Virus record (IMG/VR): IMGVR_UViG_3300037501_000026 | Span: 1 to 32,297 of that record | Source of the DNA: a virus | Taxonomy: Duplodnaviria > Caudoviricetes | Reading direction: 5' to 3' (one strand) | Length of the DNA stretch: 32,297 bases | Shown: piece after piece, positions 7,339 to 32,297 of the stretch | Numbering within the stretch: position 1 is the first letter of the stretch | How the letters are laid out: each line of letters starts with the position of its first letter | Notes under the pieces: generated by a model | Told to the model about the DNA's origin: nothing | The model's input: the letters and a program-made list of their open reading frames with translations, nothing else | Databases searched by the model: none | Translations under genes and position numbers: made by a program

Positions 7339-7448
7339 TCCTGCACGTCAGCTTCCTAAATAGAACCCTTAGGAAAGGTGATTACCGTGGGACCGGCCGG
7401 CGTCAGGGTCGGGTGATCGGGAGCGTGGATCGCGGGGCTACCCGATGA
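7335..7448 (+). CDS. 37-aa mini-ORF coupling probable terS to terL
   Basis: MILHVSFLNRTLRKGDYRGTGRRQGRVIGSVDRGATR*, with ATGA overlaps at both ends. Confidence 0.35.
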   Translation: MILHVSFLNRTLRKGDYRGTGRRQGRVIGSVDRGATR

Positions 7449-9067
7449 GCACGGTCGAAGTCACGCCTGTCATCGAGAAGGTGTTCAAACCCTTCAAGAG
7501 ACAGGAAGACTTCGTTGGCCTCCCGGATCAGTTCTTTGAGGCGTTCTACGGAGGTGCCGCAGGAGGGGGAAAGTCGGACATCATTGTGATGCTCCCCATC
7601 CTCAGGCAGTTCCACGAGAATCCCAACTACCACGGGATCGTGTTTCGTCGTACATACCCTGAGCTCGAAGCCTCCCTCCTCATGGTGGCCCAAAAGTGGT
7701 ATCCGTATTTTGGGGCCAAATACAACGATCAGAAGCACACGTGGGTCTTCCCATCTGGTGCCGTGCAGAGGTTTTCCTACCTCCAGAGCGATGATGATGC
7801 CCGGTCCCATGACACGGCCCAGTACCACTACATAGGCTTCGATGAGCTGACCCACTTCACGGAGTTCCAGTACACATACATGATCTCGCGGATCAGGCGG
7901 GCGACGCAGGGTCTGCCGACGATCATCAGGAGCGCGAGTAACCCAGGTAACATAGGTCACACATGGGTGCGGAAGCGCTTCGTCGAGCCTTGGCGATGGG
8001 GGTACAAGGGGCTCTTCGACGAGAAGTCGAACACCTACCGTATCTTCATCCCGTCCAAGGCGACGGACAATCCGCACATCATGGATAACGACCCCAACTA
8101 CGTGAACCGTCTGCGTCTGCTTCCAATTGCTGAGCAGAAGTCGAAGATCGATGGTGACTGGTGGGCCTACTCTGGTCAGGTCTTCGACGAGTTCCGGATG
8201 CAGCGTTACCCTGACGAGCCAGAAAACGCTGTCCACCTCTGCCCGTACTTCCCCATACCCCAATGGTGGCCCAAATATATCGCCATTGACTGGGGATACA
8301 CGGCCATGACGGTGGCCTACTGGTTCGCAGTCTCCCCGGACGCGCGCCTCTTTGTGTATAGGGAGTACTCCTGCACGAAGAAGTCTCCTGAGGTCTGGGG
8401 CGCCGACATTCTCAGGGCATCTCAGTTCGATGGGAATATCAAGTTCGCCACGTTAGACCCATCCGCGTGGCAGAACAGGGGTGAGCAGAAGCTCATCTGG
8501 ATGCAGGTCCAAGATGCCCTCGGACATATCGGGGTCAAGCAGGCCGACAACGATCGTGTTGGTGGTAAGCTAGCTATCCATGAGCTTCTCCGCTGGCAAC
8601 CCCGGCCCGTCCGCTACGTCCCGAAGGAAGGGTATCGCGCCGACAGGTACGACCAGATCTTCAGGATGAGTGGGTTGAAAGCTGCGCTGGAGTATAGGAA
8701 GATGTTTGACCCAGAGGTACCGGAGGTCAATCTTCCTAAGCTCCAAATCCTCGAAGGTACTTGTCCTCTCTTGGTGGATGTGATCCCGACTGTCGTCTAC
8801 GAGGATCCGAAGAAGGACGGCAAGCGTCCAGAGGACGTGAAGGAATTCGACGGTGACGACCCTTACGACGCGTTCCGCTACGGGGCGAAGGAGTATGAGT
8901 CCCTCGTCACGGAGTCGACTGGGGTCGGCGAGGAAATTCGTAGAACCTCCGAGATGATGAAGCTGGCTGAGACGGACATGTACAGCTTCTATCGTCAGAT
9001 GGAGAGGAACGAGAAGAAGGGCAAGGGAGATGTCATCCGACCCAATCATCGCCGATTCGGCCGCTGA
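7445..9067 (+). CDS. terL: terminase large subunit
   Basis: Walker A YGGAAGGGKS, VFRRTYPEL, Walker B IGFDELTHF, coupling motif ASNPG, nuclease domain AIDWG...DDPYDAFRYG. Confidence 0.93.
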   Translation: MSTVEVTPVIEKVFKPFKRQEDFVGLPDQFFEAFYGGAAGGGKSDIIVMLPILRQFHENPNYHGIVFRRTYPELEASLLMVAQKWYPYFGAKYNDQKHTWVFPSGAVQRFSYLQSDDDARSHDTAQYHYIGFDELTHFTEFQYTYMISRIRRATQGLPTIIRSASNPGNIGHTWVRKRFVEPWRWGYKGLFDEKSNTYRIFIPSKATDNPHIMDNDPNYVNRLRLLPIAEQKSKIDGDWWAYSGQVFDEFRMQRYPDEPENAVHLCPYFPIPQWWPKYIAIDWGYTAMTVAYWFAVSPDARLFVYREYSCTKKSPEVWGADILRASQFDGNIKFATLDPSAWQNRGEQKLIWMQVQDALGHIGVKQADNDRVGGKLAIHELLRWQPRPVRYVPKEGYRADRYDQIFRMSGLKAALEYRKMFDPEVPEVNLPKLQILEGTCPLLVDVIPTVVYEDPKKDGKRPEDVKEFDGDDPYDAFRYGAKEYESLVTESTGVGEEIRRTSEMMKLAETDMYSFYRQMERNEKKGKGDVIRPNHRRFGR

Positions 9068-9311
9068 TCATCTCTGGAGGCTGGTCGAATCCCTCCAGCG
9101 GGAGAAGGAAGCACTCCGTGCTGAGTCCAAGATGTGGCAGGAGCGTTTCCTCGCCATGACTGGGATGGCTGATCAGACGAGTGAGCCTGTGTCCCTGAGT
9201 GGGGGCCCACTCGGAAAGCACGTTTCGATCATGGGGCTTCGCCACAAGTATGAGGCCCTTGCACGTGAGCGGGCGAAGAAGCTGAAGGGGGAGGGCGATG
9301 ACGCTTCGTGA
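9030..9311 (+). CDS. hypothetical coiled-coil protein (93 aa)
   Basis: GGGAG RBS; overlaps the end of terL and the next gene. Confidence 0.55.
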   Translation: MSSDPIIADSAADHLWRLVESLQREKEALRAESKMWQERFLAMTGMADQTSEPVSLSGGPLGKHVSIMGLRHKYEALARERAKKLKGEGDDAS

Positions 9312-9681
9312 AGCACGCGTCCTCTTCACCAAGTTGGTCGGGCAGCTTCTTGTCCAGATCGATCAGACGGACTGGTCTCGTTATGGGAAGGTTGAGGTTG
9401 CTGTAGATGAATGGACGGTTCACTCCAACCGAATCTACATTGACAACGCTACTGGACAGCGGCGATTCGGTGTTGATCGTATTCATCACCCCAAGGGTTT
9501 CCATCCGCGAGGTCTTGCGTTGGATCTCTTGGTGTACATCAACGGAGCCTACATCACCAGTGGTTCTCATCCAATCTGGCGTGATCTGGATATCATGGCG
9601 CACAAGCTACATCCGGAACTGAACTTTGGTGATGAGTTTCACGACTCCAATCACCTGTCTCTCGGTGAGGTGAAGCGATGA
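9298..9681 (+). CDS. M15-family Zn peptidase (probable endolysin)
   Basis: FHPRGLALD (H-x6-D) and GDEFHDSNHLS (third His ligand). Confidence 0.75.
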   Translation: MTLREARVLFTKLVGQLLVQIDQTDWSRYGKVEVAVDEWTVHSNRIYIDNATGQRRFGVDRIHHPKGFHPRGLALDLLVYINGAYITSGSHPIWRDLDIMAHKLHPELNFGDEFHDSNHLSLGEVKR

Positions 9682-10328
9682 CGAAGACAAAGCTCGGGGC
9701 CATCATCGCGGCCCTAGTGGCATCTGGCATACTCGGCGCCGGCGTCCTCAAGAAATACTGTGAGGTCTTCCCAACGGACGCTGTCTGCCCTGTGGTGAAT
9801 CCGACACCGACCCCACCGACCCCGCCGACGCCGACGCCCGCACCGTTCACCTCGTGCCCAAAGAAGTTCGAGGGTGACGCGGTTTATATGCGGAACAACC
9901 ACTACGGTCAGGGAGTCGACAGCACGGTGTGGATCAGCGGTGATCCGCGCTTCTGCTACATGATCCACGGAGTGGAGGTGAGCCGCTGTCACCTCGAAGG
10001 GTGGGCCAAGAGGTCTGAGTGCGAGATGGAGCTGCTCGGTGGATGTCCGGTGTGGCAGTTCAGGAACGCTGCCTTCCCGGAGCCGCAGCTGTGCAGTGAC
10101 CGAAGCTTCGAAGGTCCTCATATGTCATGCGACCACTTCGGCAGCGTGGAGTTCAGGGACGACCCTAAGACGCCGGCGTTCGAAGGTCAGCCTGCCGAGT
10201 GTGGAAATCAACGCGACCAGTACGGCCCGAACGCGGGGTTCTTCATGATCGCGCACGGCAAGGGAGAGGTTCGTGCGTGCCTTCCGAACTTCACGGGCTG
10301 TGGTCAATGGCGGGCAATCGACAAGTGA
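9678..10328 (+). CDS. exported or membrane-anchored Cys-rich protein with Pro/Thr linker
   Basis: N-terminal hydrophobic helix, PTPTPPTPPTPTPAP linker, many Cys. Confidence 0.7.
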   Translation: MTKTKLGAIIAALVASGILGAGVLKKYCEVFPTDAVCPVVNPTPTPPTPPTPTPAPFTSCPKKFEGDAVYMRNNHYGQGVDSTVWISGDPRFCYMIHGVEVSRCHLEGWAKRSECEMELLGGCPVWQFRNAAFPEPQLCSDRSFEGPHMSCDHFGSVEFRDDPKTPAFEGQPAECGNQRDQYGPNAGFFMIAHGKGEVRACLPNFTGCGQWRAIDK

Positions 10329-10563: not shown

Positions 10564-10679
10564 AGTTCAAGCTTCTGAAGGCTCTGGTCTGGATCGTCCG
10601 GAACGCTCCGGCGATCATCGAGGTCGTGAAGCAGGCTCGGAAGCGTCACCCGGAGACGCACGCGGAGGCACTCAAGTGA
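10560..10679 (+). CDS. small amphipathic protein (39 aa)
   Basis: MKFKLLKALVWIVRNAPAIIEVVKQARKRHPETHAEALK*; GTGA overlaps at both ends. Confidence 0.5.
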   Translation: MKFKLLKALVWIVRNAPAIIEVVKQARKRHPETHAEALK

Positions 10680-11245
10680 AACCCTCGCTCCCCTACGTTG
10701 AAGTGCGTGCGGGTGACCTGGCCCTCTTCAAGGGGACGTCTATCCTTGGCAAGGTGATTCGTTGGGCACAGTGTACGGGGAGCGAGGCCCCCTCTTGGGC
10801 CAATCACGTCGGGGTGATCGTCAACGACGGCCAGCTGAAGGACGCCATCATTATCGAGTCCCTCTGGAAAACGGAGAAACGCCCCCTCCTTGTCAACCAC
10901 AGAGGAGATGAAATCTCGATTTTTCGTTTCAGAATGCTCACTCCTGAGCAGAAGTACGGTATCGTACGCAAGATGCGTGAGTTCGTTGGGGACACCTACG
11001 GATGGTGGCGCCTGATCCAGCATCTCGTGGACAACCGTATTTGGGGCGGTCGGGTCGTGCTGCGGTGGATCGGGAAGGAAAACCAGAACCGCCCGATCTG
11101 TTCTTACTCGGCGGGGCTTGCCTACGAATTCGTGGACATCACGTTCGGGAAGCCGGCGTTCTCTCTACAGCCTGACGACATGGATGACTGGTGCATGAAC
11201 AACGACCTGCCATGGCAGCCGGTCATCATCCGGGAGAAGCTCTGA
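10676..11245 (+). CDS. permuted papain-like NlpC/P60 (YaeF/YiiX-like) amidase/peptidase
   Basis: AGDLALF, NHVGV (catalytic His), GDTY and ICS (catalytic Cys) appear in the circularly permuted order. Confidence 0.8.
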   Translation: MKPSLPYVEVRAGDLALFKGTSILGKVIRWAQCTGSEAPSWANHVGVIVNDGQLKDAIIIESLWKTEKRPLLVNHRGDEISIFRFRMLTPEQKYGIVRKMREFVGDTYGWWRLIQHLVDNRIWGGRVVLRWIGKENQNRPICSYSAGLAYEFVDITFGKPAFSLQPDDMDDWCMNNDLPWQPVIIREKL

Positions 11246-15618: not shown

Positions 15619-17083
15619 TCTTCTGGCGTTGATCGTCCTTGCATCTCCTGCATACGCGGGCATCCGCTATGTTGGGGGTCAAGGGGCGGGGTTTGCCGGA
15701 AAAACCTCGTCTACAACGGTGACGTTCGCTCTCAGTAACTCTGGTAGTGAGATGTCAACCACACCAGAGGCCGGTGATCTTGTCGTTGTTACGTATTGCA
15801 CGGGTTCTACTGCTGACCGGACGCTGACCATCACAAACGCTGGTGGTACCCCCTACACCTATCTATCCGATCTTTACGCAAACGATACCTACGACGCAAA
15901 CATGAGGGTAGGTTATCGTTTCATGCCGTCTACCCCTGAAACCTCGCTTGTACTTTCTCAGACGTTCAACACCGCAGATGCTGGTCGTTATACGATCCAT
16001 GTGTTTCGAGGTGTGGATCCTAGTACGCCGATTGACGTTACGTCAACGACGGCCACGGGGATTGACTCTCGTGTTGTGAATCCTGCCGCCATTACCCCGT
16101 CTACGGCGGGCGCATTCATTTATATTACCGGCTGTGGAGCCGGTGGGACGGGTGGCACTTATACTGCGTCTCATCTTACGAGCTTTCTGGCCGGCACGAC
16201 GGCAGATACCAACGATGCCTTCATTGGATCTGGATTCTACATGGGGTGGACATCAGGATCCTACGATGGGGCAAACTTTTCTGGTGGTGGTACAACTACA
16301 ACTAGTGACTCGTGGGCCTCGACAACAGTAGCACTTCGACCCGCGACATACTCCAGCAATATCTATCCGACCACACAGAGAGCCGTTGGCAGGAATCCGA
16401 CAAGTTCATCGGTCTCTCTCGCTATGCCATCGGCGTACAATATAACGAGTGGCAATCATATCGTAATTGGATGTACGGTTGCGTGGAATGCCTCTGGTAA
16501 TGACTGCGCCGCTGGAGACGTAACTAAGACAGCAGGAACGTCCACAATCGGCACAGTCACGATAGATCAAGAGGCTGAACATAATGATGGGACTAACTAC
16601 TTTTCGGCCTGTTTGTGGTCCGTACCAGTAACGGGCACGGGTACTCTAACGTTGCAGGTGAGCAACGGTAGTATCATCGGTCTATCTTGTGTAGCACAAG
16701 AATATGCCGGGATGCACGCGACCAATCGTGTGGCTGGAACCGGATCTATCGGTACAGGAAACTCAACATCTGCATCAACTGGATCGTATGCTGGAGCTGG
16801 ACATAATTTGTTCGTTGGTCAGCTATCATTCTGGACTAGTTCAACATACACCATTACACCATCCTCCGCTTACACCATGTTGTACGAGGTCGAGGATGCT
16901 GCACAAATGACTGGAGGTTTTTCGGAGAGTTTTACCACGACTAGTACAACACAGAACGCCTCATTTACCATCGGTGGGACCGTTTATTGGGGTGCAGGTT
17001 TGGTTGTCTATCAGGACACCGTAGCCGATGAAGGACCAACGTGTGCGAATTTCATCACTCTGATGGGTGCAGGGTGTAAATGA
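15599..17083 (+). CDS. signal-peptide-bearing Thr/Ser/Gly-rich two-domain beta-sandwich protein (494 aa)
   Basis: MRSTLRSLLALIVLASPAYA signal peptide; two related domains (AGDLVVV...FRGVDPSTPID and SGNHIVIG...EYAGM). Confidence 0.7.
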   Translation: MRSTLRSLLALIVLASPAYAGIRYVGGQGAGFAGKTSSTTVTFALSNSGSEMSTTPEAGDLVVVTYCTGSTADRTLTITNAGGTPYTYLSDLYANDTYDANMRVGYRFMPSTPETSLVLSQTFNTADAGRYTIHVFRGVDPSTPIDVTSTTATGIDSRVVNPAAITPSTAGAFIYITGCGAGGTGGTYTASHLTSFLAGTTADTNDAFIGSGFYMGWTSGSYDGANFSGGGTTTTSDSWASTTVALRPATYSSNIYPTTQRAVGRNPTSSSVSLAMPSAYNITSGNHIVIGCTVAWNASGNDCAAGDVTKTAGTSTIGTVTIDQEAEHNDGTNYFSACLWSVPVTGTGTLTLQVSNGSIIGLSCVAQEYAGMHATNRVAGTGSIGTGNSTSASTGSYAGAGHNLFVGQLSFWTSSTYTITPSSAYTMLYEVEDAAQMTGGFSESFTTTSTTQNASFTIGGTVYWGAGLVVYQDTVADEGPTCANFITLMGAGCK

Positions 17084-17676
17084 GCGATGGACCCCAGATT
17101 CCTCGTAGATATTGGATCTACTTCGGTCCAAGAAGGGGAAGGGTTTCCTGGGCGGAACTTGAGGTACCCGACTCCGTATCAGCTACGCGTCGTGCGAGGA
17201 TTTCTTGGGCAGAGCTCGAGGTTCCGAATGTACCTCACAGAGCGTATGTGTCGTGGGCTGAATTCGAGATCCCAAATGCTCCACGCAGGGTTCGTGTCTC
17301 GTGGGCAGAATTTGAGATCCCGAATGCTCAACGACGCGGTCATGTCTCTTGGGTGGAGTTTGAGGTACCGAACCCTCCTAGGAGAGCACAGGTTTCGTGG
17401 GCAGAGCTGGAGATTCCTAACGCTCAAAGGAGGGCTAGGGTATCTTGGGCTGAGTTTGAGATACCTACTCGGCCGGATCGTGCGAAGGTATCGTGGGCTG
17501 AATTGGAGATTCCTAACGCTCCAAGACGTGCCCGGTTGTCGTGGGTTGAAATGGAGGTTCCTAGCTTGCCAGCAAGAGCACAGATCTCTTGGGCAGAGCT
17601 TGAGATTCCCTCCGTTGGAGACACGGGTGGCGTGAGTAATGCTCGCGCTGTGCTCGGTGGTAAACTGAGGAGGTAA
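17080..17676 (+). CDS. tandem 16-aa repeat protein (10 x RRARVSWAE[LF]E[IV]PNxx)
   Basis: Ten repeats visible in the translation; ATGA overlap with the upstream gene. Confidence 0.75.
   Translation: MSDGPQIPRRYWIYFGPRRGRVSWAELEVPDSVSATRRARISWAELEVPNVPHRAYVSWAEFEIPNAPRRVRVSWAEFEIPNAQRRGHVSWVEFEVPNPPRRAQVSWAELEIPNAQRRARVSWAEFEIPTRPDRAKVSWAELEIPNAPRRARLSWVEMEVPSLPARAQISWAELEIPSVGDTGGVSNARAVLGGKLRR
17131..17610 (+). repeat. coding tandem repeat, 48-nt period, 10 units
   Basis: Recurring tc(t/g/c)tggg..ga....gag core with varied synonymous codons; the first unit is 3 codons longer. Confidence 0.85.
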
Positions 17677-22580: not shown

Positions 22581-24461
22581 ATGTTTGAGCACTCGCCGGT
22601 CTCGATCACGGATTTCCGTGGGAGGTTTGAACGGGGCGAAGCTGAGGCGACTCCGTTGGGCTTCTTTTCTGATGAGGGAAATCTCACATTCTCTCGTGAG
22701 GGAGTCGAGACTCGGCGAGGCTTCTCCCCGATAGCTGGCTTCAGCACCTCAACGGTCATCCTGCGCGCTCATGAGTTCAGACGGATTGGGGAAGCATCAC
22801 GCTTCATCTATCTGACTGACACAGGGGATTTCTACGATTCCCTCTACCCATCGACACCCATCCTCAGCCTCGGATCAGGGGTTGAAGATTTTGCCTTGGC
22901 AGTTGTGTTTAACAGGGCTTACATCTCACCTCACGATAGGTCAGCGGGTCTGACCGGGAGGTTTGTTTACGTTTACGACGGTTCGGGTAGCGCGAGAAAG
23001 GCGGCGGGCTCAGCTCCATCGGCCTTCACTCTTGTGGTGGCTGAGGGATCTGCCTCAGGTAACGATGCAATCGAGAAGGGTATACACCTTTTCGCGGTTG
23101 CGTATGAGACTGCCTCGGGGTTCATTACCAAACCGGGGACAGGAACAGTAGTAGCAGTTCTTGATGCGACCGGTGGGAAGGTCGCCGACCTGAGTGGTAT
23201 ACCTGTCGGTCCCTCTGGCACTGTCGCAAGACACATCCTCACGACGAAGATCATTCCCAATTATGCTGCCGGAACGGAGGCATATCAGGAATGGTTCTTC
23301 CTTCCCGATGGTCGTATTGGTGACAACGTGACCACGACGAAGAACGGCATCTCTTTCTACGACATCGCGCTGCAGGACAGTGCGGATTACCTGCTCACGC
23401 AGCTTGAGGAGATTCCTGCCGGTGTGTTCCTCGTCGATTACGAGGGACAACTTTGCGTCGGCGGGGAGGCCCAGAATAACTCTACCGTGAGGGTCTCTAG
23501 CCCCGGTAACCCCGAGTCATTCTCTGCACTCGATGGTTTCGTCAACGTCAACCCGGGAGATGGTGGAGGAGTCACTAATGGGGTCTCGCACAGAGGCAGT
23601 CTATACATCTCTAAGAGTCAGCGGTTCTACGCTACGAATAAGAGTGCAGGTTCCCCTTCCTCATGGCCGGTCATCTCAGTCGATTCTGGAATTGGCACCG
23701 AATGCTTCGGGATCTCCTCGGTACTGGACTCTCGAGGACACTCAAGGGATCAGTTCCTTGTTGCTGCACGATCTGGTCTCTACCAGTACCTTGGGGCCTT
23801 CGCAGAAAGGGAACTGACGTGGAACGTTCGTGACCTGTGGGCGAGGATCAACAAGATCCATTTCAGCAAGGTTCAGGTCATGGTCGATCCACAGAGAGAA
23901 TGGATTGTTGTTGCGCTTCCCCTCGACGCGGCGACGGCAAACTCCCACCTTCTCGTTGGTGACTACTCAGAGGCACTGGATCCTACGGGTGTGAAATGGT
24001 CCCTGTGGACTCTACCGAAGGCGCCGACGTCCTCACTGATTCAGGTGGATTACTCGTCGAAGGTTTCGATGATCGTGTACGGTTCCGTTGCTGGAGGGCT
24101 GTACTACTACGACGACAGCTCTCGCAACGATTACGGAACGAGAATCGATGGATACCTTGAGACGAACCTCATTGAGCTTCAGGGGAACGTTGACGGGATC
24201 AACCATTACGCTGGCGTGCGTATGAGGGTAAGGGGAGATAGCACGCTGACGGTTAGGCTCTCTGGCTACGACAAGCTTCAGACTGAGTCCTATCCCTCGA
24301 TCACCCTCTCCGCAACCCCCGGTGAAGCAAAGCTCGTTAGGACGGATTTCCTTGCCGAACGTGTATCTGTCAAACTGACGCAGACAACTTACGAGAGCTG
24401 GTTCCTTCTCAACAGACTGACTGTTCATGTCAAGCCCCTGTGGGCGGAGCGGGCGGAGTGA
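22581..24461 (+). CDS. tail nozzle/stabilisation protein (P22 gp10 / tubular B-like), putative
   Basis: 626 aa, beta-propeller-like; ITDFRG...N......G.ETRRG N-terminus and VRVSSPGNPESF; position in the tail module. Confidence 0.65.
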   Translation: MFEHSPVSITDFRGRFERGEAEATPLGFFSDEGNLTFSREGVETRRGFSPIAGFSTSTVILRAHEFRRIGEASRFIYLTDTGDFYDSLYPSTPILSLGSGVEDFALAVVFNRAYISPHDRSAGLTGRFVYVYDGSGSARKAAGSAPSAFTLVVAEGSASGNDAIEKGIHLFAVAYETASGFITKPGTGTVVAVLDATGGKVADLSGIPVGPSGTVARHILTTKIIPNYAAGTEAYQEWFFLPDGRIGDNVTTTKNGISFYDIALQDSADYLLTQLEEIPAGVFLVDYEGQLCVGGEAQNNSTVRVSSPGNPESFSALDGFVNVNPGDGGGVTNGVSHRGSLYISKSQRFYATNKSAGSPSSWPVISVDSGIGTECFGISSVLDSRGHSRDQFLVAARSGLYQYLGAFAERELTWNVRDLWARINKIHFSKVQVMVDPQREWIVVALPLDAATANSHLLVGDYSEALDPTGVKWSLWTLPKAPTSSLIQVDYSSKVSMIVYGSVAGGLYYYDDSSRNDYGTRIDGYLETNLIELQGNVDGINHYAGVRMRVRGDSTLTVRLSGYDKLQTESYPSITLSATPGEAKLVRTDFLAERVSVKLTQTTYESWFLLNRLTVHVKPLWAERAE

Positions 24462-25885
24462 GTCAGCAACAGATTGACAGAAAATACGCACAGTATCAGG
24501 CTCTCCTACAGGGGATCCAGAAGAAGGATCCTCGTCTGTATGACGTCCTCAAACTCGTCACGACAGACATAAAAAGCTTGCTCGATGTGGTAGATCCTAT
24601 CCAAGCCTCATTGCAGAGGATCGAGGCGGCGAGCACGGAGAAGCCGCAGGGACCTACCGTCTTCATTGCTGCAATAACCCCCGGTGCTGTCACGTTTGTG
24701 TGGGGATCCGCCGACACGAGCGTGCGTTTTTATGAGCTGCGCAAGGGAACTGAGTGGGATACTGCTACCTTCATTCTTCGTACATCCTCACTCTCAGCCG
24801 CGATTGAACCCATCGCTGAAGGCTCTCATACATACCTTCTGAAGACGCTCACGGGTTCCCTCGTTGAGTGCATCGACGCCGTCCCTGCCAACATCACAGT
24901 CAATGGCCCTTCCGCACCCTCGGTTACGACTCAGGTCATAGACAATAACGTCCTCATCAATTGGACTGAACCAGCCAGCGATTTCTATGTGGACTATTAC
25001 AACGTCTACAAGGACGGTGTAAAGTTTGCAGAGCTGTCTGGAACCTTCACTGCTAAGTTTGAGGTGACATCGGGTACCTACATCTATAGCGTGGAGGCGG
25101 TCGACATTGCCGGTAACGTTGGTGATCAGGGCTCCTCAGAGGCAACGGTAAGACAGCCTCCTGACTACAACCTCCTGGATAGTAGAGACGTCACGTGGAC
25201 GGGCACTCTAACCAACTGTCTCGTTGAGAACGGAAGGCTCATCGCCTGCGTTGATACGACTGAGACGTATGAGGCCCACTTCACCTCCAAGAGTTGGTCA
25301 TCTCCGAGTGATCAGGTCAACGCGGGGTACGAGCTGTACATACAGGAGAACCTCCTTTCCGGATCGTATGAAGAGCAGTACGACTATGGAGCAGTTCTAT
25401 CGAATACCATCGTTAACTACAACTTCCTAAAGGAGAACTTCGCAGGAACAGGTGATGTCACAGTAATCATCAAGACCTATTACAAGGTCAACGTTGGCGA
25501 TGCGTGGTCTGGTCCCATCACGGGAACCTCTGCCTTCATCAGCTCGTTCCGCTACATGAAGACCGTGATGGAGTTCTCTGCGGCGGCCGCCGACAACATG
25601 ATTGCTGTGTCTTCCTTCGTGATTCGGTTGGACGTAAAACGGGAGGTTGACAGCGGCTACGTCAATGCGCTAGCTTCGGACACGGGTGGAACGGTGGTTA
25701 GCTTCAACAAGTCATTTAAGGATGTTGACGCTATCACCGGCACCTCGGACTCCGGCGCACCAATTACAGTCATCTTTGACTTTGCAGACGTACCAAACCC
25801 TACATCGTTCAAGGTCTTCTGCTTTGACTCTAGTGGAAACAGAGTCGACCAGTTGGTTTACTGGGTGGCGAGAGGGATCGTGTAA
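24458..25885 (+). CDS. tail protein with fibronectin type III-like domains
   Basis: INWTEP....DYYNVYKDG...YIYSVEAVDIAGN FN3 pattern; GTG 24458 overlaps the upstream stop. Confidence 0.7.
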   Translation: MSQQQIDRKYAQYQALLQGIQKKDPRLYDVLKLVTTDIKSLLDVVDPIQASLQRIEAASTEKPQGPTVFIAAITPGAVTFVWGSADTSVRFYELRKGTEWDTATFILRTSSLSAAIEPIAEGSHTYLLKTLTGSLVECIDAVPANITVNGPSAPSVTTQVIDNNVLINWTEPASDFYVDYYNVYKDGVKFAELSGTFTAKFEVTSGTYIYSVEAVDIAGNVGDQGSSEATVRQPPDYNLLDSRDVTWTGTLTNCLVENGRLIACVDTTETYEAHFTSKSWSSPSDQVNAGYELYIQENLLSGSYEEQYDYGAVLSNTIVNYNFLKENFAGTGDVTVIIKTYYKVNVGDAWSGPITGTSAFISSFRYMKTVMEFSAAAADNMIAVSSFVIRLDVKREVDSGYVNALASDTGGTVVSFNKSFKDVDAITGTSDSGAPITVIFDFADVPNPTSFKVFCFDSSGNRVDQLVYWVARGIV

Positions 25886-26439: not shown

Positions 26440-27281
26440 TGTCTGACACGAACATCTTTCCGTCTGCTCCTAGTTCCTATGTAGGGCTATACTACATAGC
26501 TGATCCTTCCTCCGGGTGGTCAGTCAACGGAGACAACAATCCGGCTAACTGCATCGCGACTCAGAGTGACAGTAAGACAATATCTGTAAACCTGTACGAT
26601 GCATGGGATCCGGGTCCGAATTCTCCCTACTATAGCTTTGGTCTAGGATCTCTACCAACGTACATCACCATCACGGCGATGACGATGTACTGGTATGAGA
26701 ATAGGTCGGGTACGTCTCCTGGATCATGGAAGGGTCAACACTCTCTTGATGGGTCTAACTGGACAGACAACATAGCCTCACATACGGTCAATGCGGGCTC
26801 ACTTGTCAGCGGCTCCATGGCCAGACCTGGCGGAGGCTCATGGACACGTTCGGATCTATCCAACCTTCGGGTTAGGTGCTATCCCACCGCTGCTGCTAGC
26901 TCTAGCCGTGTAGTCTCGATCGACCTCTGGTATGTCACGGTATCGTGGACCTACGTTGTTCCTACTACCGTACAGACTGATGATGCCGATCAGATCGGGG
27001 TGTTCAGCGCCAGACTCAAGGGTACGATAAACTCGAATGGTGACCTCGGTGGGCAGTATAGGTTTGTGTGGGGAACCTCCTCTGGATCCTACTCATACTC
27101 CACGAGTTGGACCACGGTCACGGATGGGGGTTCCAACCAGTATACCCACACTCCATCTCTGAGCCCCGCGACAAACTACTTCTACCGAATCGAATACAGG
27201 AATAGTGGGCTTGAGGTGACCAACGGTGCTGAGAAGACGTTCAAGACCCTCAGCGGTGGTTGCTTCGTAATGGTGGACTAG
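26439..27281 (+). CDS. putative tail/receptor-binding protein with C-terminal FN3-like domain
   Basis: SARLKGTINSNG...YRFVWGT...LSPATNYFYRI...GAEKTFKT. Confidence 0.65.
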   Translation: MSDTNIFPSAPSSYVGLYYIADPSSGWSVNGDNNPANCIATQSDSKTISVNLYDAWDPGPNSPYYSFGLGSLPTYITITAMTMYWYENRSGTSPGSWKGQHSLDGSNWTDNIASHTVNAGSLVSGSMARPGGGSWTRSDLSNLRVRCYPTAAASSSRVVSIDLWYVTVSWTYVVPTTVQTDDADQIGVFSARLKGTINSNGDLGGQYRFVWGTSSGSYSYSTSWTTVTDGGSNQYTHTPSLSPATNYFYRIEYRNSGLEVTNGAEKTFKTLSGGCFVMVD

Positions 27282-27289
27282 GAGGCACG

Positions 27290-27565
27290 ATGGCTGCTAA
27301 CGTCGCAGTTACGATCACGGGTACGACGCCGAAACAACAGGAAAAGCTCGCAGAGTTCCTTTCAGACCTGAACGTCCAGAGGGTCAATCAGGAGCTGCCC
27401 CCCTACCCAACGGTGGAAGCCTGGGCATCGGATTTCGTCTACGATCAGATCAAGGCCAACATCAGGTCCTTCGAGCTGATCGAGGGCAACATGGTGCGTG
27501 AGGCTTACATCGCCGCTGACGATACCGTGCAGGGACAAGTCAGGACTCTGCTGGACATCCCGTAA
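27290..27565 (+). CDS. hypothetical protein (91 aa)
   Basis: GGAGG RBS before ATG 27290; TAATG overlap. Confidence 0.65.
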   Translation: MAANVAVTITGTTPKQQEKLAEFLSDLNVQRVNQELPPYPTVEAWASDFVYDQIKANIRSFELIEGNMVREAYIAADDTVQGQVRTLLDIP

Positions 27566-27762
27566 TGGCAGAGGTGAGCATCCGTGAGATGTGGATGCTT
27601 CTCGGGGAGAAGGACGTTCAGATCTTCCAGCTCCTCAAGGAGAAGCAAGAACTACTCGACGTGTGTATGAAACTGAAGGAGGAACTCAATGGCAAACTGG
27701 AGCAACCCCGGCCTGACGACGGGATACTCCACGCTGCTGTCGGAACTCAAGGCGAGGGATGA
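27565..27762 (+). CDS. small coiled-coil protein (possible fibre chaperone)
   Basis: LLGEKDVQIFQLLKEKQEL heptads; overlaps the next gene by 74 nt. Confidence 0.5.
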   Translation: MAEVSIREMWMLLGEKDVQIFQLLKEKQELLDVCMKLKEELNGKLEQPRPDDGILHAAVGTQGEG

Positions 27763-28123
27763 GGATGCCGTAACCCTCGCAGATTCCCCTACGAATCCGC
27801 CGACGGGTTACATCAGGTGGAACACTACCCTCAACAAGTTCCAACGCTGGTCGGGATCGGCGTGGGTGGATCTCATCCTTGCTGCCGCCGGCGGTGGCAC
27901 GGGAGGGACGACCTCCCTTGGCACTATGGCGTTCCAGAGCTCCTCCTCCGTCAGCATCACAGGTGGATCCATCACGGGCCTCAGCGCCATGACCGTCGCC
28001 TGTGACATTACGCCAACGACGGATGGCACTCGTGTCCTTGGCTCTGCCTCGATGATGTTCAAGGGGGCGTTCTTCAAGGACTACCTGGTGGTTCCCGTCG
28101 GCGCGGACAAGTGGGCACCGTAA
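27689..28123 (+). CDS. short tail-fibre-like protein (144 aa)
   Basis: IRWN....KFQRWSGSAW, GGTGGTT-LGTMAFQSSSSVSITGGSITG and ITPTTDGTRVLGS fibre motifs. Confidence 0.65.
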   Translation: MANWSNPGLTTGYSTLLSELKARDEDAVTLADSPTNPPTGYIRWNTTLNKFQRWSGSAWVDLILAAAGGGTGGTTSLGTMAFQSSSSVSITGGSITGLSAMTVACDITPTTDGTRVLGSASMMFKGAFFKDYLVVPVGADKWAP

Positions 28124-28801
28124 ATGGCTAAACCTGGATCCGTTTGGGTAGAGGGAACTGAGTTCCATCACATTGACGAGAATGGGGTGGAATGGAAGTT
28201 CAACGGTGATCTTGTGGCTGCTGGTTCTCTAAGGCCCGGATCTATCTGGCCTGAAGGGGATAACTACCACTACATCGACGAGTACGGGGATGAGCGGCGG
28301 ATGCTCGGCCAGGATCATGGAACTGTTTCTGGTCGGCAGGGGTCCAAGTGGATACAGAGTGTTCTCCAGAGGTGGGCATGGATTGACGCTTCGTCTAAGA
28401 AAAGGACTGCCCATGTTGACACTCATACTGACTCGCACGGAGATGCTACTGTGCCCCATAGTGATTCTGCCCACCTTGACGTTACCCACGTGGATAATCC
28501 CCATTCCGATAGTCATGGTGATGACTACACGGACACTCACTCGGACATAGCCCACGCGGATAATGCTCATTCTGACGATCATGGGGATCACTCGGATAGC
28601 TATCCTTCCCATATCGACTACCATAATGACTACCCTCACGGGGACACAGCACACTCCGATGTAACTGAGGACGATCACACTGACACTCACAGTGACGTTT
28701 CTCATGGTGATGTAGCTCACTCTGACGATCATGGGGATCACACGGATCACACTGACTCGTATAGTGACGTCGCCCACGATGATAGGCCGGTGCAGGCATG
28801 A
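28124..28801 (+). CDS. His-X-Asp repeat protein; putative radical SAM substrate and/or metal-binding virion protein
   Basis: Three N-terminal GS.W......ID repeats, then 25 HxD and 2 YxD motifs (28412-28783); ATGA overlap with the radical SAM gene. Confidence 0.8.
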   Translation: MAKPGSVWVEGTEFHHIDENGVEWKFNGDLVAAGSLRPGSIWPEGDNYHYIDEYGDERRMLGQDHGTVSGRQGSKWIQSVLQRWAWIDASSKKRTAHVDTHTDSHGDATVPHSDSAHLDVTHVDNPHSDSHGDDYTDTHSDIAHADNAHSDDHGDHSDSYPSHIDYHNDYPHGDTAHSDVTEDDHTDTHSDVSHGDVAHSDDHGDHTDHTDSYSDVAHDDRPVQA

Positions 28802-29994
28802 CTGTAGAGATCCATCCGATCGGTCTCAGGTGCAACTTGGCTTGCACGTATTGCTACCAAGAGAATATGCGCCCAACAGACCGTGCCTACATCAAGGTTG
28901 ACAAGATTCTCAAGCAGGTCAAGAATCAGGGTCAGAAATTCACCATATTCGGTGGAGAGCCCCTTCTCACTCCAATCGCTGTGCTTGACGAGTTCTTCAA
29001 GTTTGGTTACGAGAACTACAAGGAGAACGGGGTACAGACGAATGGTACTCTTCTGACACAGGCTCACATGGATATGTTCAAGAAATACAATGTCCATGTG
29101 GGTGTATCCTGTGATGGCCCCGGAGAGCTGAGTGCGGCAAGAGAGAGTCGGTCTGGTCCGCAGTACACGAAGGCCACTACGCTCCAGACTACTGAGGCCA
29201 TCGACAAACTCCTCGCCGCCGGCATCCGTTGTTCTCTCATCATCACGCTACACTCCGATAATGCTAGGGGGGACGGACTCGACCGCTTGGTGGAGTGGCT
29301 AACCGACCTGGCGTCGAAGGGTTTGCGTTCGGCACGCTTACATTTAATGGAGCTTGACAATCCCGAGAAATCCGCTAGATTGGTACTGACGCCGGAGGAG
29401 AACGCTGCCGCTGTTCTACGTCTGAGTGGTATCAAGGGTATATCCTTTGATATACTCGATGAGATGCGGCGCAACCTCCTGAACGATTTCTCGAGGTCAT
29501 CTTGTGTTTGGCATGGATGCGATCCGTATACGACGCCAGCGGTTGTCGGCATCGACGCGGATGGCACTTTGTCGAACTGTGGTAGGGTTAACAAGGAGGG
29601 TGTTAACTATCGTAAGTCGGATACTCCCGGTCGAGAGAGGCTCGTTGGTCTTTACCGTACACCTTATCGCGAAGGAGGATGCGGTGGATGTCGGTTCTTC
29701 CTTGCGTGCAAGGGTCAATGTCCTGGAACCGGTGAGGGGGGAGACTGGCGTAATCGAACATCGCACTGTGGAACGTTACTCATCCTCTTCGAGAAGCTGG
29801 AGCAGGATCTCCTCATGGAAGGGAAGAAGCCTGTCTCACAGTGGGAGAACAGAGAGGATCTAGAGAGAGCTATCGTGGAACCTGTGAGCAGTGCGCACGG
29901 TGACGTCCACGAGGATTGGCATGCCGACGTCCCTCATGGGGATATCTGGCACGTGCCGGTTGGGAGACCTGACGATGAGAATGCAGTGGGCTAG
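28798..29994 (+). CDS. radical SAM/SPASM-domain peptide/protein maturase
   Basis: CNLACTYC (CxxxCxxC), FGGEPLL, QTNGTLL, VSCDGP; SPASM cysteines CVWHGC...NCG...CGGCRFFLACKGQC...HC. Confidence 0.92.
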   Translation: MTVEIHPIGLRCNLACTYCYQENMRPTDRAYIKVDKILKQVKNQGQKFTIFGGEPLLTPIAVLDEFFKFGYENYKENGVQTNGTLLTQAHMDMFKKYNVHVGVSCDGPGELSAARESRSGPQYTKATTLQTTEAIDKLLAAGIRCSLIITLHSDNARGDGLDRLVEWLTDLASKGLRSARLHLMELDNPEKSARLVLTPEENAAAVLRLSGIKGISFDILDEMRRNLLNDFSRSSCVWHGCDPYTTPAVVGIDADGTLSNCGRVNKEGVNYRKSDTPGRERLVGLYRTPYREGGCGGCRFFLACKGQCPGTGEGGDWRNRTSHCGTLLILFEKLEQDLLMEGKKPVSQWENREDLERAIVEPVSSAHGDVHEDWHADVPHGDIWHVPVGRPDDENAVG

Positions 29995-31171
29995 CTCCAG
30001 TATCGAGCAGCTTTGGAGACCTCGTCTCGACAGGATCCAGAGCCTTGTCCATCGGCTGGAGATTGAAACTGTCCAGCAGGACCTTAGAGCTGGCGCTCTG
30101 ATTTCGAGGTCTCCGGGTGATCCGTCGTGGAGCCTTCTGAAGGTTGTTCCAATCGGAGTCTCAAAGGTCGAGGGTTATAGCGACGCCTCGATCTTCCCGA
30201 AGGAAGGTGAGCGCTACGTCATTCGTGCGCTGGTCGTTAAGGATCCAATTGAAACTGTCCCACAGACGGATGAAGAGTGGGGAAAGTTTCTTGGATATCC
30301 TCCCTGCTGCATCAAGCATTTCGAGAAGAACTGGGCCGCTGGAAACAAGGACCATCTCCTAACGCAGCTGGGTCCTAGCGTCTTCGGGTTCGAGCTTCCC
30401 TTCAACAGTACGCACAACGTGACGCTGCGCTACATCGGTGTGCGCCCGGTCTTCCACCTCCCTTGCAGCTTCGATTGTCCGGGGACCAAGCTGATCCACG
30501 ACGAGCACAAGAGGCTTGCCGTTCACATGGATCATGAGGCATGGGGGTGGATGGAAACTCTTCTCACCATGCCCTACAGCGTAAGTGTTGTCAAGGGAAT
30601 CGGTGAGATCGTACACCCCTTCTTCCGTCTTACCTACGATACGGGCGGTAAGGTCGAGTACAGGGGGAGCTTCAAAAACGTTCGCTCGGAGAACGTTTCC
30701 CCCATCTCAATGGACACCTTTTGGGAAGACAACGGGTTCAAGAACTACTTTGACATGGAGGCAGCGCATCGCAATATCATCTTCGAGGTGATCGGGCTGA
30801 ACGCGGACTCGGTGATGGACCTTGGTGCAGGGAATGGTCTATTCATCGAGAAGATCGGTCGTACCCTGTCGGCATTCAGGCGGATAGCAGTAGACTCCTC
30901 CGCTGAGAAGTGTAACAGGGGCAAGCGTCTGTGTCCTGATGTCGAATTCATCCATTCGAAAATCGAAGACATCAAGGAATCGGCGGACATCGTCTTCATA
31001 TCGTACAACCGTCTGCATGAGGGCTTTCCCTCCATTCACTTTGCAGACATGGTCAACAAATACCTCATTGTCTACAGCTATGAGGCGGACATCCCGACCT
31101 TGGTCATTGAGGGATTTGAGAGACTTGGTCAACGAAATCGTCGCGTCCACGTTTATAAGAGAGTCCAATGA
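29975..31171 (+). CDS. fusion of a Cys-motif domain (DUF483-like) and a class I SAM-dependent methyltransferase-like domain
   Basis: FLGYPPCCIKHF and FHLPCSFDC in the N-terminal half; VMDLGAGNG...IAVD SAM-binding motifs in the C-terminal half; GGGAG RBS before ATG 29975. Confidence 0.65.
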   Translation: MRMQWASSSIEQLWRPRLDRIQSLVHRLEIETVQQDLRAGALISRSPGDPSWSLLKVVPIGVSKVEGYSDASIFPKEGERYVIRALVVKDPIETVPQTDEEWGKFLGYPPCCIKHFEKNWAAGNKDHLLTQLGPSVFGFELPFNSTHNVTLRYIGVRPVFHLPCSFDCPGTKLIHDEHKRLAVHMDHEAWGWMETLLTMPYSVSVVKGIGEIVHPFFRLTYDTGGKVEYRGSFKNVRSENVSPISMDTFWEDNGFKNYFDMEAAHRNIIFEVIGLNADSVMDLGAGNGLFIEKIGRTLSAFRRIAVDSSAEKCNRGKRLCPDVEFIHSKIEDIKESADIVFISYNRLHEGFPSIHFADMVNKYLIVYSYEADIPTLVIEGFERLGQRNRRVHVYKRVQ

Positions 31172-31464
31172 TCCTCCTCAGACCGAAAGTGAGGATGTCT
31201 CAAGGGCCGAACAGAGTCTACCCTGAGATACTCTTTGCGATCGGCGTTGCTGAGAAGATCTTTGAAAACTATGGGCTTTCTGTAAACGTTGAGTCACTCC
31301 TAGAGGGTCATAGCCCACAACACTACGTTGGTAGAGAGGTGGACATGACCGTTCCCGAGGATCAGTCAAGGGACATCGCGGCGGACCTTCAGACTGCCTT
31401 GCTCGATTCCTTCGTTGTGACGGCGAAGGGGTCTATCATTCATGTGGTTTTCACTCATGCCTGA
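31168..31464 (+). CDS. small M15-fold Zn peptidase-like protein
   Basis: HYVGREVD (H-x6-D) and C-terminal IIHV. Confidence 0.5.
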   Translation: MILLRPKVRMSQGPNRVYPEILFAIGVAEKIFENYGLSVNVESLLEGHSPQHYVGREVDMTVPEDQSRDIAADLQTALLDSFVVTAKGSIIHVVFTHA

Positions 31465-31726
31465 TCAGGTTCTCTACGGTGTCATCACTTTCCTCGGCCT
31501 CGGCATTCTGGCGTTGGGGGGTCTGTGGGTCAGAGCGCATGATCAACACAGACAATGGTCCGTGGAAAAAATCACAGATGTTGAGAAGGAACTCGCCGTC
31601 ATCAAGACCAACCATCAGGAGATCAAGGACGACATCCGCGAAATCAAGGAATCCTTGAAGAACCACCTTGACATTGAACAGAGGTTCCAGAAGGCTCTGA
31701 TCACGCACCTCAACCTGAAGGTCTAA
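31457..31726 (+). CDS. single-TM coiled-coil protein (holin/XhlA-like)
   Basis: N-terminal hydrophobic helix followed by IKDDIREIKESLK coiled coil. Confidence 0.55.
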   Translation: MPDQVLYGVITFLGLGILALGGLWVRAHDQHRQWSVEKITDVEKELAVIKTNHQEIKDDIREIKESLKNHLDIEQRFQKALITHLNLKV

Positions 31727-31727
31727 C

Positions 31728-32111
31728 ATGGTTCACCTTCGGCCGTTCAGACAGGAAGACATCTCAGAAATCGACACCATCTGGCGCAGGTTCTACAAAG
31801 GCCAGTTTGGTGTCCCTTCCCTGAAGAACGTGATCGAGTCGAAGGTGATCACAGCTGATGGAAAGATTCTTGGCTTTGGAATGGTGAAGCTGTTTGCAGA
31901 AGGTGTCATCATTCTAGACAAGGATGCCCCTCTCAACTCGCGGGCTAAGGGGATCATCGTCGGTATCGAGCACGCGATGGATGTTGTGAAGCAAGCGGAT
32001 CTTGAACAGTTCCACATCTTCACAGACGATCCTCATTACATCGAGGTCCTGCAGAAGCATTGGGGTTTCAGGACCACCCCAGAGAAGGTGCTCTACAGGG
32101 AGATCGGGTAA
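31728..32111 (+). CDS. GNAT-like protein (position typical of the acetyltransferase-like gene before podovirus ejection genes)
   Basis: LRPFRQEDISEI start, DGKILGFG strand and KHWGF end. Confidence 0.55.
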   Translation: MVHLRPFRQEDISEIDTIWRRFYKGQFGVPSLKNVIESKVITADGKILGFGMVKLFAEGVIILDKDAPLNSRAKGIIVGIEHAMDVVKQADLEQFHIFTDDPHYIEVLQKHWGFRTTPEKVLYREIG

Positions 32112-32297
32112 TGGCCAAGGGTGGTGCAAAGAGAACGAACCAGATGTTGGAGCAGTCGTACAATCAGGCGAATCAGTTCTCCAACACACAGGGTCAGCGC
32201 AGCCAAGAAGCATACGGTTACGGCACGGGGATCCGTGACTATGTGACCGAACACTACAAGGCAATGCTGGAAGGACTTGGTGGTGGGGGTGACGGTG
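32111..32297 (+). CDS. probable DNA ejection/internal virion protein, N-terminal part; runs off the window edge
   Basis: TAATG overlap; MAKGGAKRTNQMLEQSYNQANQFSNTQGQRSQEAYG... is Gln/Gly-rich; synteny. Confidence 0.5.
   Translation, partial: MAKGGAKRTNQMLEQSYNQANQFSNTQGQRSQEAYGYGTGIRDYVTEHYKAMLEGLGGGGDG

Follow-up and report, generated by a model that had tools for sequence, protein, structure and literature searches.

The window analyzed here is the whole 32,297-base virus record IMGVR_UViG_3300037501_000026 (Caudoviricetes); contigs from a freshwater metagenome, a run that may have yielded this DNA, are identical to it over positions 27000–32291. Its + strand carries three overlapping genes at 28124–31171: g1 (28124–28801), encoding a protein of 225 amino acids (aa) crowded with His-x-Asp (HxD) motifs; a radical S-adenosylmethionine (rSAM) enzyme of 398 aa with a SPASM-type domain (28798–29994; Pfam Radical_SAM, E 3.5e-16); and g3 (29975–31171; 398 aa), in which a DUF483-like domain is fused to a methyltransferase. 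The open reading frames (ORFs) of g1 and the enzyme overlap by the bases ATGA and those of the enzyme and g3 by 20 bases. The g3 start codon, ATG at 29975, is preceded by GGGAG, and the ORF finder gave GTG at 29891 as an upstream in-frame alternative. The gene directly upstream of g1, g0 (27689–28123, +), is also part of the module and encodes a short fibre-type protein of 144 aa, predicted to form a trimer, with PHROG matches (phrog_20787, E 4e-4) that include a virion structural protein. An initial annotation, made from the letters alone, had placed the three genes behind fibre genes, in agreement with the upstream tail- and virion-type PHROG matches; a tail/host-specificity protein at 24440–25885 (+; phrog_1727, E 2e-14) sets the cassette, which comes after several small tail-region genes, within the tail module. 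With a probability of roughly 0.58, we interpret the module as one in which the His-x-Asp array protein, predicted to cap the fibre tip, is crosslinked by the rSAM/SPASM enzyme together with its DUF483-like partner.

The presumed substrate is the array in g1 residues 97–220 (28412–28783, +), which holds 25 HxD motifs; one more lies at residue 16. Within residues 96–225 all 25 His belong to an HxD motif, as compared to a mean of 6.3 (sd 2.0, maximum 14) in 20,000 shuffles of the region, so the count in the initial annotation was accurate. Asp is found one, three and four positions after His only 1, 3 and 0 times, respectively, and His and Asp together make up 40% of the array residues. Since synonymous codons are mixed (CAC 14 and CAT 11 for His, GAT 17 and GAC 16 for Asp) and the array DNA contains no tandem array (a TRF run found one 9-base doublet only), the pattern is kept at the protein level. 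The same two observations rule out a DNA-level tandem repeat, which had been considered. The array also contains Y135-T-D and Y213-S-D, both in register with the HxD motifs; out of 58 homologs, 51 show His in the Y135 column and 53 in that of Y213. In an internal duplication (residues 127–158 and 177–208, 72% identical), Y135-T-D is aligned with H185-T-D.

This interchange follows a general rule. Among 1575 His in a non-redundant set of 48 viral arrays, the i+2 position is taken by Asp 1490 times, by Asn 61 times and by Ser 3 times; the middle residue of the triplet is Pro only once, and Glu stands at the acceptor place in 2 of 1647 cases. Where an Asx residue lacks its His, Phe, Tyr or Trp occupies the i-2 position 70 times, against 6.6 ± 2.4 expected from 500 shuffles (maximum 14); in 59 cellular arrays the count is 41, against 4.4 ± 1.9 in shuffles. 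A missing His is thus replaced by an aromatic residue about tenfold more often than by chance. At other offsets the three aromatic residues occur 6–25 times in viral and 1–12 times in cellular arrays, and at i-2 of a free Asx there is no excess of Ile, Leu and Val, nor of the metal-binding residues Cys, Met and Glu. Because Phe is two base changes away from His, and the one-step replacements Gln, Asn, Arg and Leu are rare, mutation bias is probably not the cause. A triceptide-type cognate precursor with aromatic-X2-X3 motifs is therefore present in the form of this H/Y/F-x-D/N grammar, which points to the ring-to-C-beta crosslinking performed by triceptide synthases; as far as such rules can tell, the initial suggestion of a three-residue cyclophane substrate holds. 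In four loci (L089, L090, L108 and L110, the last at 9066–10001), the arrays consist mostly of His-x-Asn rather than His-x-Asp.

The enzyme possesses the radical SAM core and the C-terminal SPASM-type domain that triceptide synthases require. Its CxxxCxxC motif (C12–C19; 28831–28854, +) lies so close to the start that there is no room for an N-terminal RRE domain, and the SPASM set C295-x2-C298-x5-C304-x3-C308 is part of eight SPASM Cys (C236, 241, 261, 295, 298, 304, 308 and 324; 29503–29769, +) which are invariant in 27 aligned sequences and spaced by 4, 19, 33, 2, 5, 3 and 15 residues. Of these features, the initial annotation had named the CxxxCxxC motif, the four-Cys SPASM set and the missing RRE, which were verified; it had overlooked the in-register Tyr-x-Asp motifs of the array, the place of g0 in the module and the HxD motifs on the enzyme tail. 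The C-terminal tail of the enzyme itself bears four HxD motifs (residues 367–382; 29896–29943, +), and tails with at least two HxD are shared by 51 of the 120 best homologs and recur in 47 of 52 viral loci. They are followed by VPVG, which resembles the docking strand of g0 described below ([VAI]PVG in 7 of 120 homologs). This tail (29896–29979) might tether the enzyme to the cap domain of g1 in place of a leader, or might be a self-substrate.

A single-sequence search of viral contigs gave no match, and an alignment was required to find relatives of the enzyme. With it, 118 were found in IMG/VR and 215 in a scan of one genome per species, of which the best 80 cellular loci were examined. The 79 viral loci returned comprise 52 with a close enzyme homolog (34–48% identity) and 27 with a distant rSAM enzyme, which served as controls. 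Counting six or more HxD/N motifs near the enzyme as an array, arrays accompany the enzyme in 51 of the 52 close viral loci (the single miss has 27 bases upstream), in all 49 that have at least 2 kb upstream, and in none of the 27 controls; a neighborhood survey in IMG/VR had been suggested in the initial annotation. The DUF483-like gene is found in 46 of the 52 (40 of 41 with 2 kb downstream) and likewise in 0 of 27 controls. Among the best 80 of 215 cellular loci, 55 have an array and 72 the partner; among 80 metagenome loci, the numbers are 62 and 63. One of the 80 cellular loci (L051) belongs to a genome marked as unpublished, and none of the conclusions rests on it. All three cultured Thermus phages (Cumys, phiMa and phiLo) combine the enzyme with the partner and with arrays. 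The system is thus real and widespread, and it is not confined to phages as had been supposed. In phiLo, three HxD-rich array genes (phiLo_135–137; L162:15807–21096, − strand) lie opposite the strand of the enzyme and 4–10 kb away from it. Many of the control loci (within L141–L155) combine a different phage rSAM enzyme with a conserved upstream protein of 241 aa that has a repeated motif, a separate recurring cassette.

The initial annotation had also asked whether homologs occur without an HxD-rich neighbor, and there are few. In 13 of the 25 array-free cellular loci an ORF ending in HxD was found within 2.6 kb (1 of 27 in the controls), L013 and L059 have a large ORF upstream toward whose end looser motifs occur, and several other array-free cellular loci are cut short. 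A neighborhood of deazapurine DNA-modification type was not encountered among 70 neighbors scanned; an association with DNA-modification enzymes had been raised in the initial annotation as well. This bears on the proposal that the module modifies phage DNA, put forward for Cumys and phiMa by Kolesnik et al. (2024; PMC11437467), who described it as an "rSAM module," noted DUF483 fusions and, in the accessible part of the paper, left the function open with DNA modification as a guess. The statement in the initial annotation that no characterized phage system of this kind is known therefore stands for the function and not for the gene trio, which is already in print. According to the accessible part of that paper, homologs lie beside deazapurine genes in some cyanobacteria, and a methyltransferase domain is present in g3. 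However, deazapurine families were found neither among 70 neighbors of array-poor cellular loci nor among 69 downstream viral genes, with one weak QueC match among the former falling on a tRNA thiouridylase. DNA modification would also leave the dependence on HxD arrays unexplained, and the module sits in the tail region; we regard this proposal as hardly credible in comparison with a modification of the array protein.

In cells, the relatives adjoin tailoring genes of the type known from peptides made on the ribosome and modified after translation (RiPPs), namely B12-rSAM, 2OG oxygenase and PqqD. Dokdonia pacifica (type strain; L017:6660–6893) and Aquimarina (L007:6672–6905) encode peptides of 77 aa with a single C-terminal HID, candidate precursors that are neighbored by a fused rSAM-DUF483 gene, a second rSAM gene and DUF364, as well as by a PLP decarboxylase in L007. 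Peptides with a long alternating Asp-Val/Ile run between HxD motifs (L040:6957–7241, L047, L025:6828–7082 and L031:2739–2996) look like an undescribed RiPP type; in L040 and L025 they adjoin a tetrapyrrole-methylase-like gene and DUF364. Other cellular precursors (L014:10742–12187, L030, L018, L049, L024 and L063) have a leader that by eye is twin-arginine-like, followed by up to 84 HxD. In L005, L012, L033, L044 and L064, the gene upstream of the enzyme encodes a cellular protein of 1300–1900 aa ending in an HxD array; these array proteins include LamG in L012 and tectonin domains in L033. Apart from these cellular cases, two loci (L102:10001–13129 and L107:9847–13297) contain tandem paralogous rSAM genes that are both HxD-tailed, and L107 additionally holds a pair of cap genes plus a 2OG-Fe(II) oxygenase.

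Whether the enzyme follows the array or the protein scaffold that carries it can be read from loci found independently of the enzyme. A search with the N-terminal domain of g1 returned 55 loci, of which one without a profile match and ten with less than 3 kb downstream were set aside. In the 44 kept (37 sequence clusters), the enzyme is present in 36 of 37 loci with an array and in 0 of 7 without (Fisher p 2e-7, ignoring relatedness). The whole records of these seven array-free loci, four with a completeness of 90% or more, did not yield it either; the positive control gave 3 of 3. A DNA-pattern search blind to both scaffold and enzyme led to 125 examined loci, 39 of them with arrays of at least ten motifs; 21 of these have 3 kb downstream, and 17 of the 21 contain enzyme or partner. 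The enzyme follows the array rather than the scaffold. The array-free cap is a general unannotated phage module: in L313, L319, L327, L330, L354, L355 and L356 the three-repeat cap occurs without an array, mostly as the C-terminus of phage proteins of 300–420 aa.

This coupling is relevant for the idea that the array stays unmodified and mainly binds metal on the virion through its His and Asp, with the enzyme pair loading the metal or acting otherwise. An iron-decoy role has been considered for virion metal-binding elements, the His and Asp content of the array and the presence of the same motif on the enzyme tail would suit such a function, and DUF364 ("putative heavy-metal chelation") is a neighbor in L007, L025 and L040. 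However, His is replaced by the poor metal binders Phe and Tyr and not by Cys, Met or Glu, the cellular precursors in L007 and L017 have a single motif, and the enzyme tracks the array and not the cap. An unmodified metal-binding array is thus quite improbable, while metal binding after stapling would be compatible with the crosslinking that we favor.

According to an AlphaFold2 model, residues 1–100 of g1 (28124–28423, +) form an all-beta cap domain with pseudo-three-fold symmetry (pLDDT 92–98), which corresponds to three GSxW repeats visible in the sequence. The unmodified array is predicted with a pLDDT of about 47–59, and the last block is again ordered (pLDDT 95, strand at 219–221; C-terminal strand residues 219–225, 28778–28798, +). 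Near the C-terminus, a [DSN]xP motif is found in 53 of 58 homologs, with P222 invariant. These data suggest that the C-terminal strand packs back on the cap and makes the array a closed loop. No clear match to the g1 fold was found in the PDB (best Z 3.7) and no usable match to the cap in the ESM Atlas; the only match in BFVD is a 342-aa protein with 42% identity, probably the phiMa homolog. These blank searches do not establish a new fold.

The cap is predicted to sit on the fibre. For 32 of 38 g1-type genes, judged by the printed C-termini, the upstream gene terminates with the motif [LIV]-P-[VTFYI]-G, and in 7 this motif is fused before the cap. In g0 this motif belongs to residues 132–144 (28082–28120, +), the predicted docking strand, where P136 and G138 are invariant in 18 aligned homologs; two homologs match tail fibre PHROGs. 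A complex prediction with three copies of g0 (residues 60–144) and one g1 scored 0.88 (best of three controls 0.05), above a mark passed by 116 of 157 solved pairs and by 2 of 215 mismatched ones, numbers that apply here only roughly; to the disadvantage of our interpretation, this pass may come easier because g0 and g1 are natural fusion partners. The runs share at least 95% of contacts, with a partner pLDDT of at least 64, and in the model residues 132–144 of all three g0 copies touch the cap, centered on the three GSxW repeats. This supports a model in which one g1 binds the three C-termini of a g0 trimer. Moreover, L111 encodes a tail-tip protein of J-like type (phrog_5616, E 6e-57) that has an internal array and ends in the docking motif, and in Cumys the module comes after baseplate and collar genes. 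Together with the tail-module position, sequence and modeling make the array protein very probably a tail-tip component of the virion, as the initial annotation had proposed.

The array might instead be modified and then released as a diffusible peptide or used in the cell, which would make it a true phage RiPP. Cellular members with small stand-alone precursors, some of them with twin-arginine-like leaders, are in favor of this possibility. However, a Pfam scan of the 38 window ORFs found no transporter or RiPP peptidase, in accordance with the initial annotation; genes of this kind, for leader removal and peptide export, belong to RiPPs in the strict sense. The 69 genes downstream in viral loci also include no transporter or RiPP peptidase, just two S74 fibre-chaperone matches. 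Furthermore, arrays are fused into tail proteins, the C-terminal strand of g1 is predicted to be ordered with the cap, and the complex prediction has the cap bound to the fibre. A released peptide is therefore very improbable.

The partner encoded by g3 matches DUF483 (PF04467) with an E value of 4.7e-5, its 23.8 bits lying just under the cut-off of 25, and DUF483 is found in 16–43% of the members of its ESM Atlas clusters. In this N-terminal domain (29975–30682, +), C111, C112, H161, C164 and C168 are invariant in 50 sequences and form a probable metal site. A structure search with g3 yielded no solved-structure match to the DUF483-like domain among the matches listed, which the methyltransferase domain filled. 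The latter (30704–31171, +; Methyltransf_25, E 2e-6) has a class I fold (best match Z 16.4, rmsd 2.5, 141 aligned), so the initial description of a Cys-motif/methyltransferase-like fusion was apt. A fused methyltransferase occurs in 45 of 52 viral loci, in 32 of 80 cellular ones and in none of the three cultured Thermus phages. The enzyme's constant companion is thus the DUF483-like domain, with the methyltransferase as an optional tailoring enzyme.

From these elements the following mechanism can be proposed. The g0 protein would trimerise, and the three C-terminal strands of the trimer would share a single g1 cap, each occupying one GSxW repeat; from this cap the array would protrude as a loop that is closed by the C-terminal strand and disordered until modified. 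By analogy to triceptide synthases, a 5'-deoxyadenosyl radical would abstract a hydrogen from the C-beta of Asx, the resulting radical would attack the ring at i-2, and oxidation by the auxiliary clusters would complete the reaction with a loss of 2 Da per motif. The DUF483-like domain, judging by its co-occurrence and fusions with the enzyme, may be a required helper in substrate presentation or electron transfer, and our guess for the methyltransferase is that it methylates His or Asp as an optional step. The product would be a virion protein with about 27 three-residue rings, each linking the ring of His (or Tyr/Phe) to the C-beta of Asp or Asn. In the least supported step, the stapled, acidic and imidazole-rich loop would serve as a rigid, protease-resistant element of the fibre tip for adsorption or metal binding. 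Precedents exist in the accessible parts of PMC11002830 and PMC11499958: YxdB links Tyr-C3 to Asp-C-beta, and OscB and XncB link Trp or Phe to the C-beta of Asn or Asp, HaaB and YhhB connect His-C2 to C-beta, the linkages of HaaB, YhhB and HtkB being of the His-Ala/Arg/Lys type, and ScaB takes Tyr for His.

Several observations weigh against this interpretation. A His-Asp ring itself is not among the linkages given in the accessible parts of PMC11002830 and PMC11499958. The HxD motifs on the enzyme's own tail are not accounted for. In the cellular loci L046, L050, L065 and L067 the available DNA contains no visible HxD substrate. A cap-plus-array gene in L320 has no enzyme in its 25% complete record, and 4 of the 21 pattern-found arrays lack both enzyme and partner; three of these four look like simple tandem repeats, and L394 has a true-looking array in a 41% complete record. 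The loci compared are related and partly duplicated, and the counts given for them are therefore not independent. Finally, there is the family placement of the enzyme. None of the 25 best of its 62 NCBIfam matches reaches its cut-off: the best is AmcB with 78.9 against 425 bits, and the other cyclophane-type families are likewise far below theirs, with GrrM/OscB (60.2/310), YhhB (57.4/445), FxsB (36.4/370) and XyeB (31.5/450); HxsB is at 36.9/370 and anSME (TIGR03942) at 66.9/349.45. The enzyme is thus not a member of the XyeB, GrrM, FxsB or HxsB families, with which the initial annotation had compared it. The auxiliary-cluster pattern differs from that of the FxsB/GrrM-type references, which is Cx2Cx5Cx21C in three FxsB above and five YhhB-like sequences below the cut-off and Cx3Cx5Cx22C in four GrrM above and one AmcB-like sequence below it; the eight Cys are those of anSME-type enzymes. 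In a quick tree of 46 sequences, the 15 members of the enzyme's own family group together in a clade (SH-aLRT 100), which stands beside and not within the FxsB/YhhB-like, GrrM/AmcB-like and anSME-like groups.

A joint clade of the enzyme family with 13 triceptide-type sequences is not rejected (p-AU 0.44) in a tree that has no characterized enzyme. All trees are quick trees without bootstrap; the references include sub-threshold AmcB and YhhB stand-ins and an annotated AtsB beside an arylsulfatase, with no HxsB and no XyeB, and the genomes sampled contained no HxsB, anSME, AmcB or YhhB members above the cut-off. Two viral members, L098 and L130, whose rSAM genes have the first Cys motif C-x7-C-x2-C (an insertion) instead of CxxxCxxC, were left out. 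Judged by the grammar of its presumed substrate, the enzyme would thus act as triceptide synthases do; membership among them is not established. In the trees, the cellular members all fall into a single clade, with more divergent viral sequences around it (support 89–95), a hint of a phage origin of the cellular enzymes, although long branches could give the same tree.

This isolated position leaves room for another radical chemistry: the enzyme could act on the aromatic-x-Asx motif and yield an N- or O-linked crosslink, epimerisation, backbone splicing, or oxidation or decarboxylation of Asp, with the metal site of the DUF483-like domain perhaps as a second catalyst. The separate clade and the anSME-like SPASM domain with eight Cys would be in line with such an activity, as would a near-constant partner with invariant Cys/His that is unmentioned for triceptide synthases in the accessible parts of the literature. 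However, the strict i/i+2 spacing, the interchange among ring residues only, the acceptance of Asp and Asn and hardly of Glu, and the avoidance of a middle Pro fit a ring-to-C-beta bond. Epimerases use an extra Cys outside the cluster ligands, and no additional invariant Cys of this kind is found in the alignment of 27 enzymes, which argues against epimerisation in particular. We therefore consider a different product unlikely and retain the ring-to-C-beta crosslink.

Beyond the window, a more general scenario can be advanced tentatively, which we rate somewhat below even odds: phages of many tail types might carry, on a cap or tail protein, a disordered HxD loop which tens of His-Asp cyclophanes would fold into a rigid device for binding a receptor or metal, and the leader-independent two-component rSAM/DUF483 maturase may have passed from phages to cells, there maturing peptides as well as large proteins. 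In the open-licence PMC and bioRxiv literature, no report of rSAM crosslinking of a virion protein was found. If the scenario were true, the chemistry of secreted peptide natural products would be used to build a part of a virus particle, and enzyme-made crosslinks would join the routes of tail-tip assembly. DUF483 and a widespread, unnamed family of rSAM enzymes would also gain a role, and an enzyme able to handle up to about 100 motifs while these are part of a folded fusion protein would be of use for stapling.

Elsewhere in the window, PHROG matches identify a terminase (7445–9067) and a virion structural gene (22581–24461). Between the terminase and the structural genes, 10676–11245 has a weak match to a permuted papain-like peptidase C92 (E 0.004) and to phrog_1128 (E 1e-9). 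Long ORFs at 17080–17676 and 17087–17635 overlap on the same strand in different frames. The region after the cassette (31168–32297) encodes a 98-aa ORF that resembles a degenerate M15-type peptidase, a 94-aa ORF with one hydrophobic segment, a 127-aa ORF that may be GNAT-like and, finally, a Gly/Gln-rich ORF; those of them that were scanned had no Pfam, PHROG or NCBIfam match.

Among known systems, the His-Xaa-Ser system (HxsA-D) also places His-containing triplet repeats beside rSAM enzymes. The window, however, lacks the HxS repeat and the HxsB/HxsC pair that define it, and g1 matches no NCBIfam model. The best solved relative of the enzyme is anSME/AtsB (PDB 4k36; E 1e-18), which is also RRE-free, has an eight-Cys two-cluster SPASM domain and modifies a folded-protein substrate, as presumed for the window enzyme; in contrast to anSME, the latter scores under the cut-off, belongs to a separate clade and has no sulfatase among the window ORFs scanned. 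The triceptide synthases (XncB, OscB/GrrM, MscB/FxsB, YxdB, HaaB, YhhB, HtkB and ChlB) are likewise rSAM enzymes acting on aromatic-x-x motifs. The window enzyme differs from them by its separate clade, eight SPASM Cys and constant DUF483-like partner. Triceptide precursors have several motifs each; the presumed substrate in the window is a structural protein of 225 aa with about 27 motifs and without a cleavable leader, peptidase or exporter. For the predicted arrangement of g1 on g0, the gp38 adhesin of T2/S16-type phages offers an analogy only, as no sequence or fold match was found: its N-terminal part sits on the tip of the gp37 fibre trimer, and it has a low-complexity repeat region (PMC12892980). 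Unlike g1, it forms polyglycine-II helices, and the accessible part of that paper describes no modifying enzyme. The closest counterpart is the rSAM module of the Thermus phages Cumys (Cumys_13/12/11) and phiMa (phiMa_29/28/27), with three homologous genes in the same order as in the window, an enzyme that is 43% identical over 96% and a cap that is 44–45% identical. The word "histidine" does not appear in the accessible main text of PMC11437467. The DUF483 proteins of these phages are without the methyltransferase found in g3; Cumys_13 and phiMa_29 contain 54 and 53 HxD motifs, respectively, and their upstream gene ends in a docking motif of the same type as in the window.

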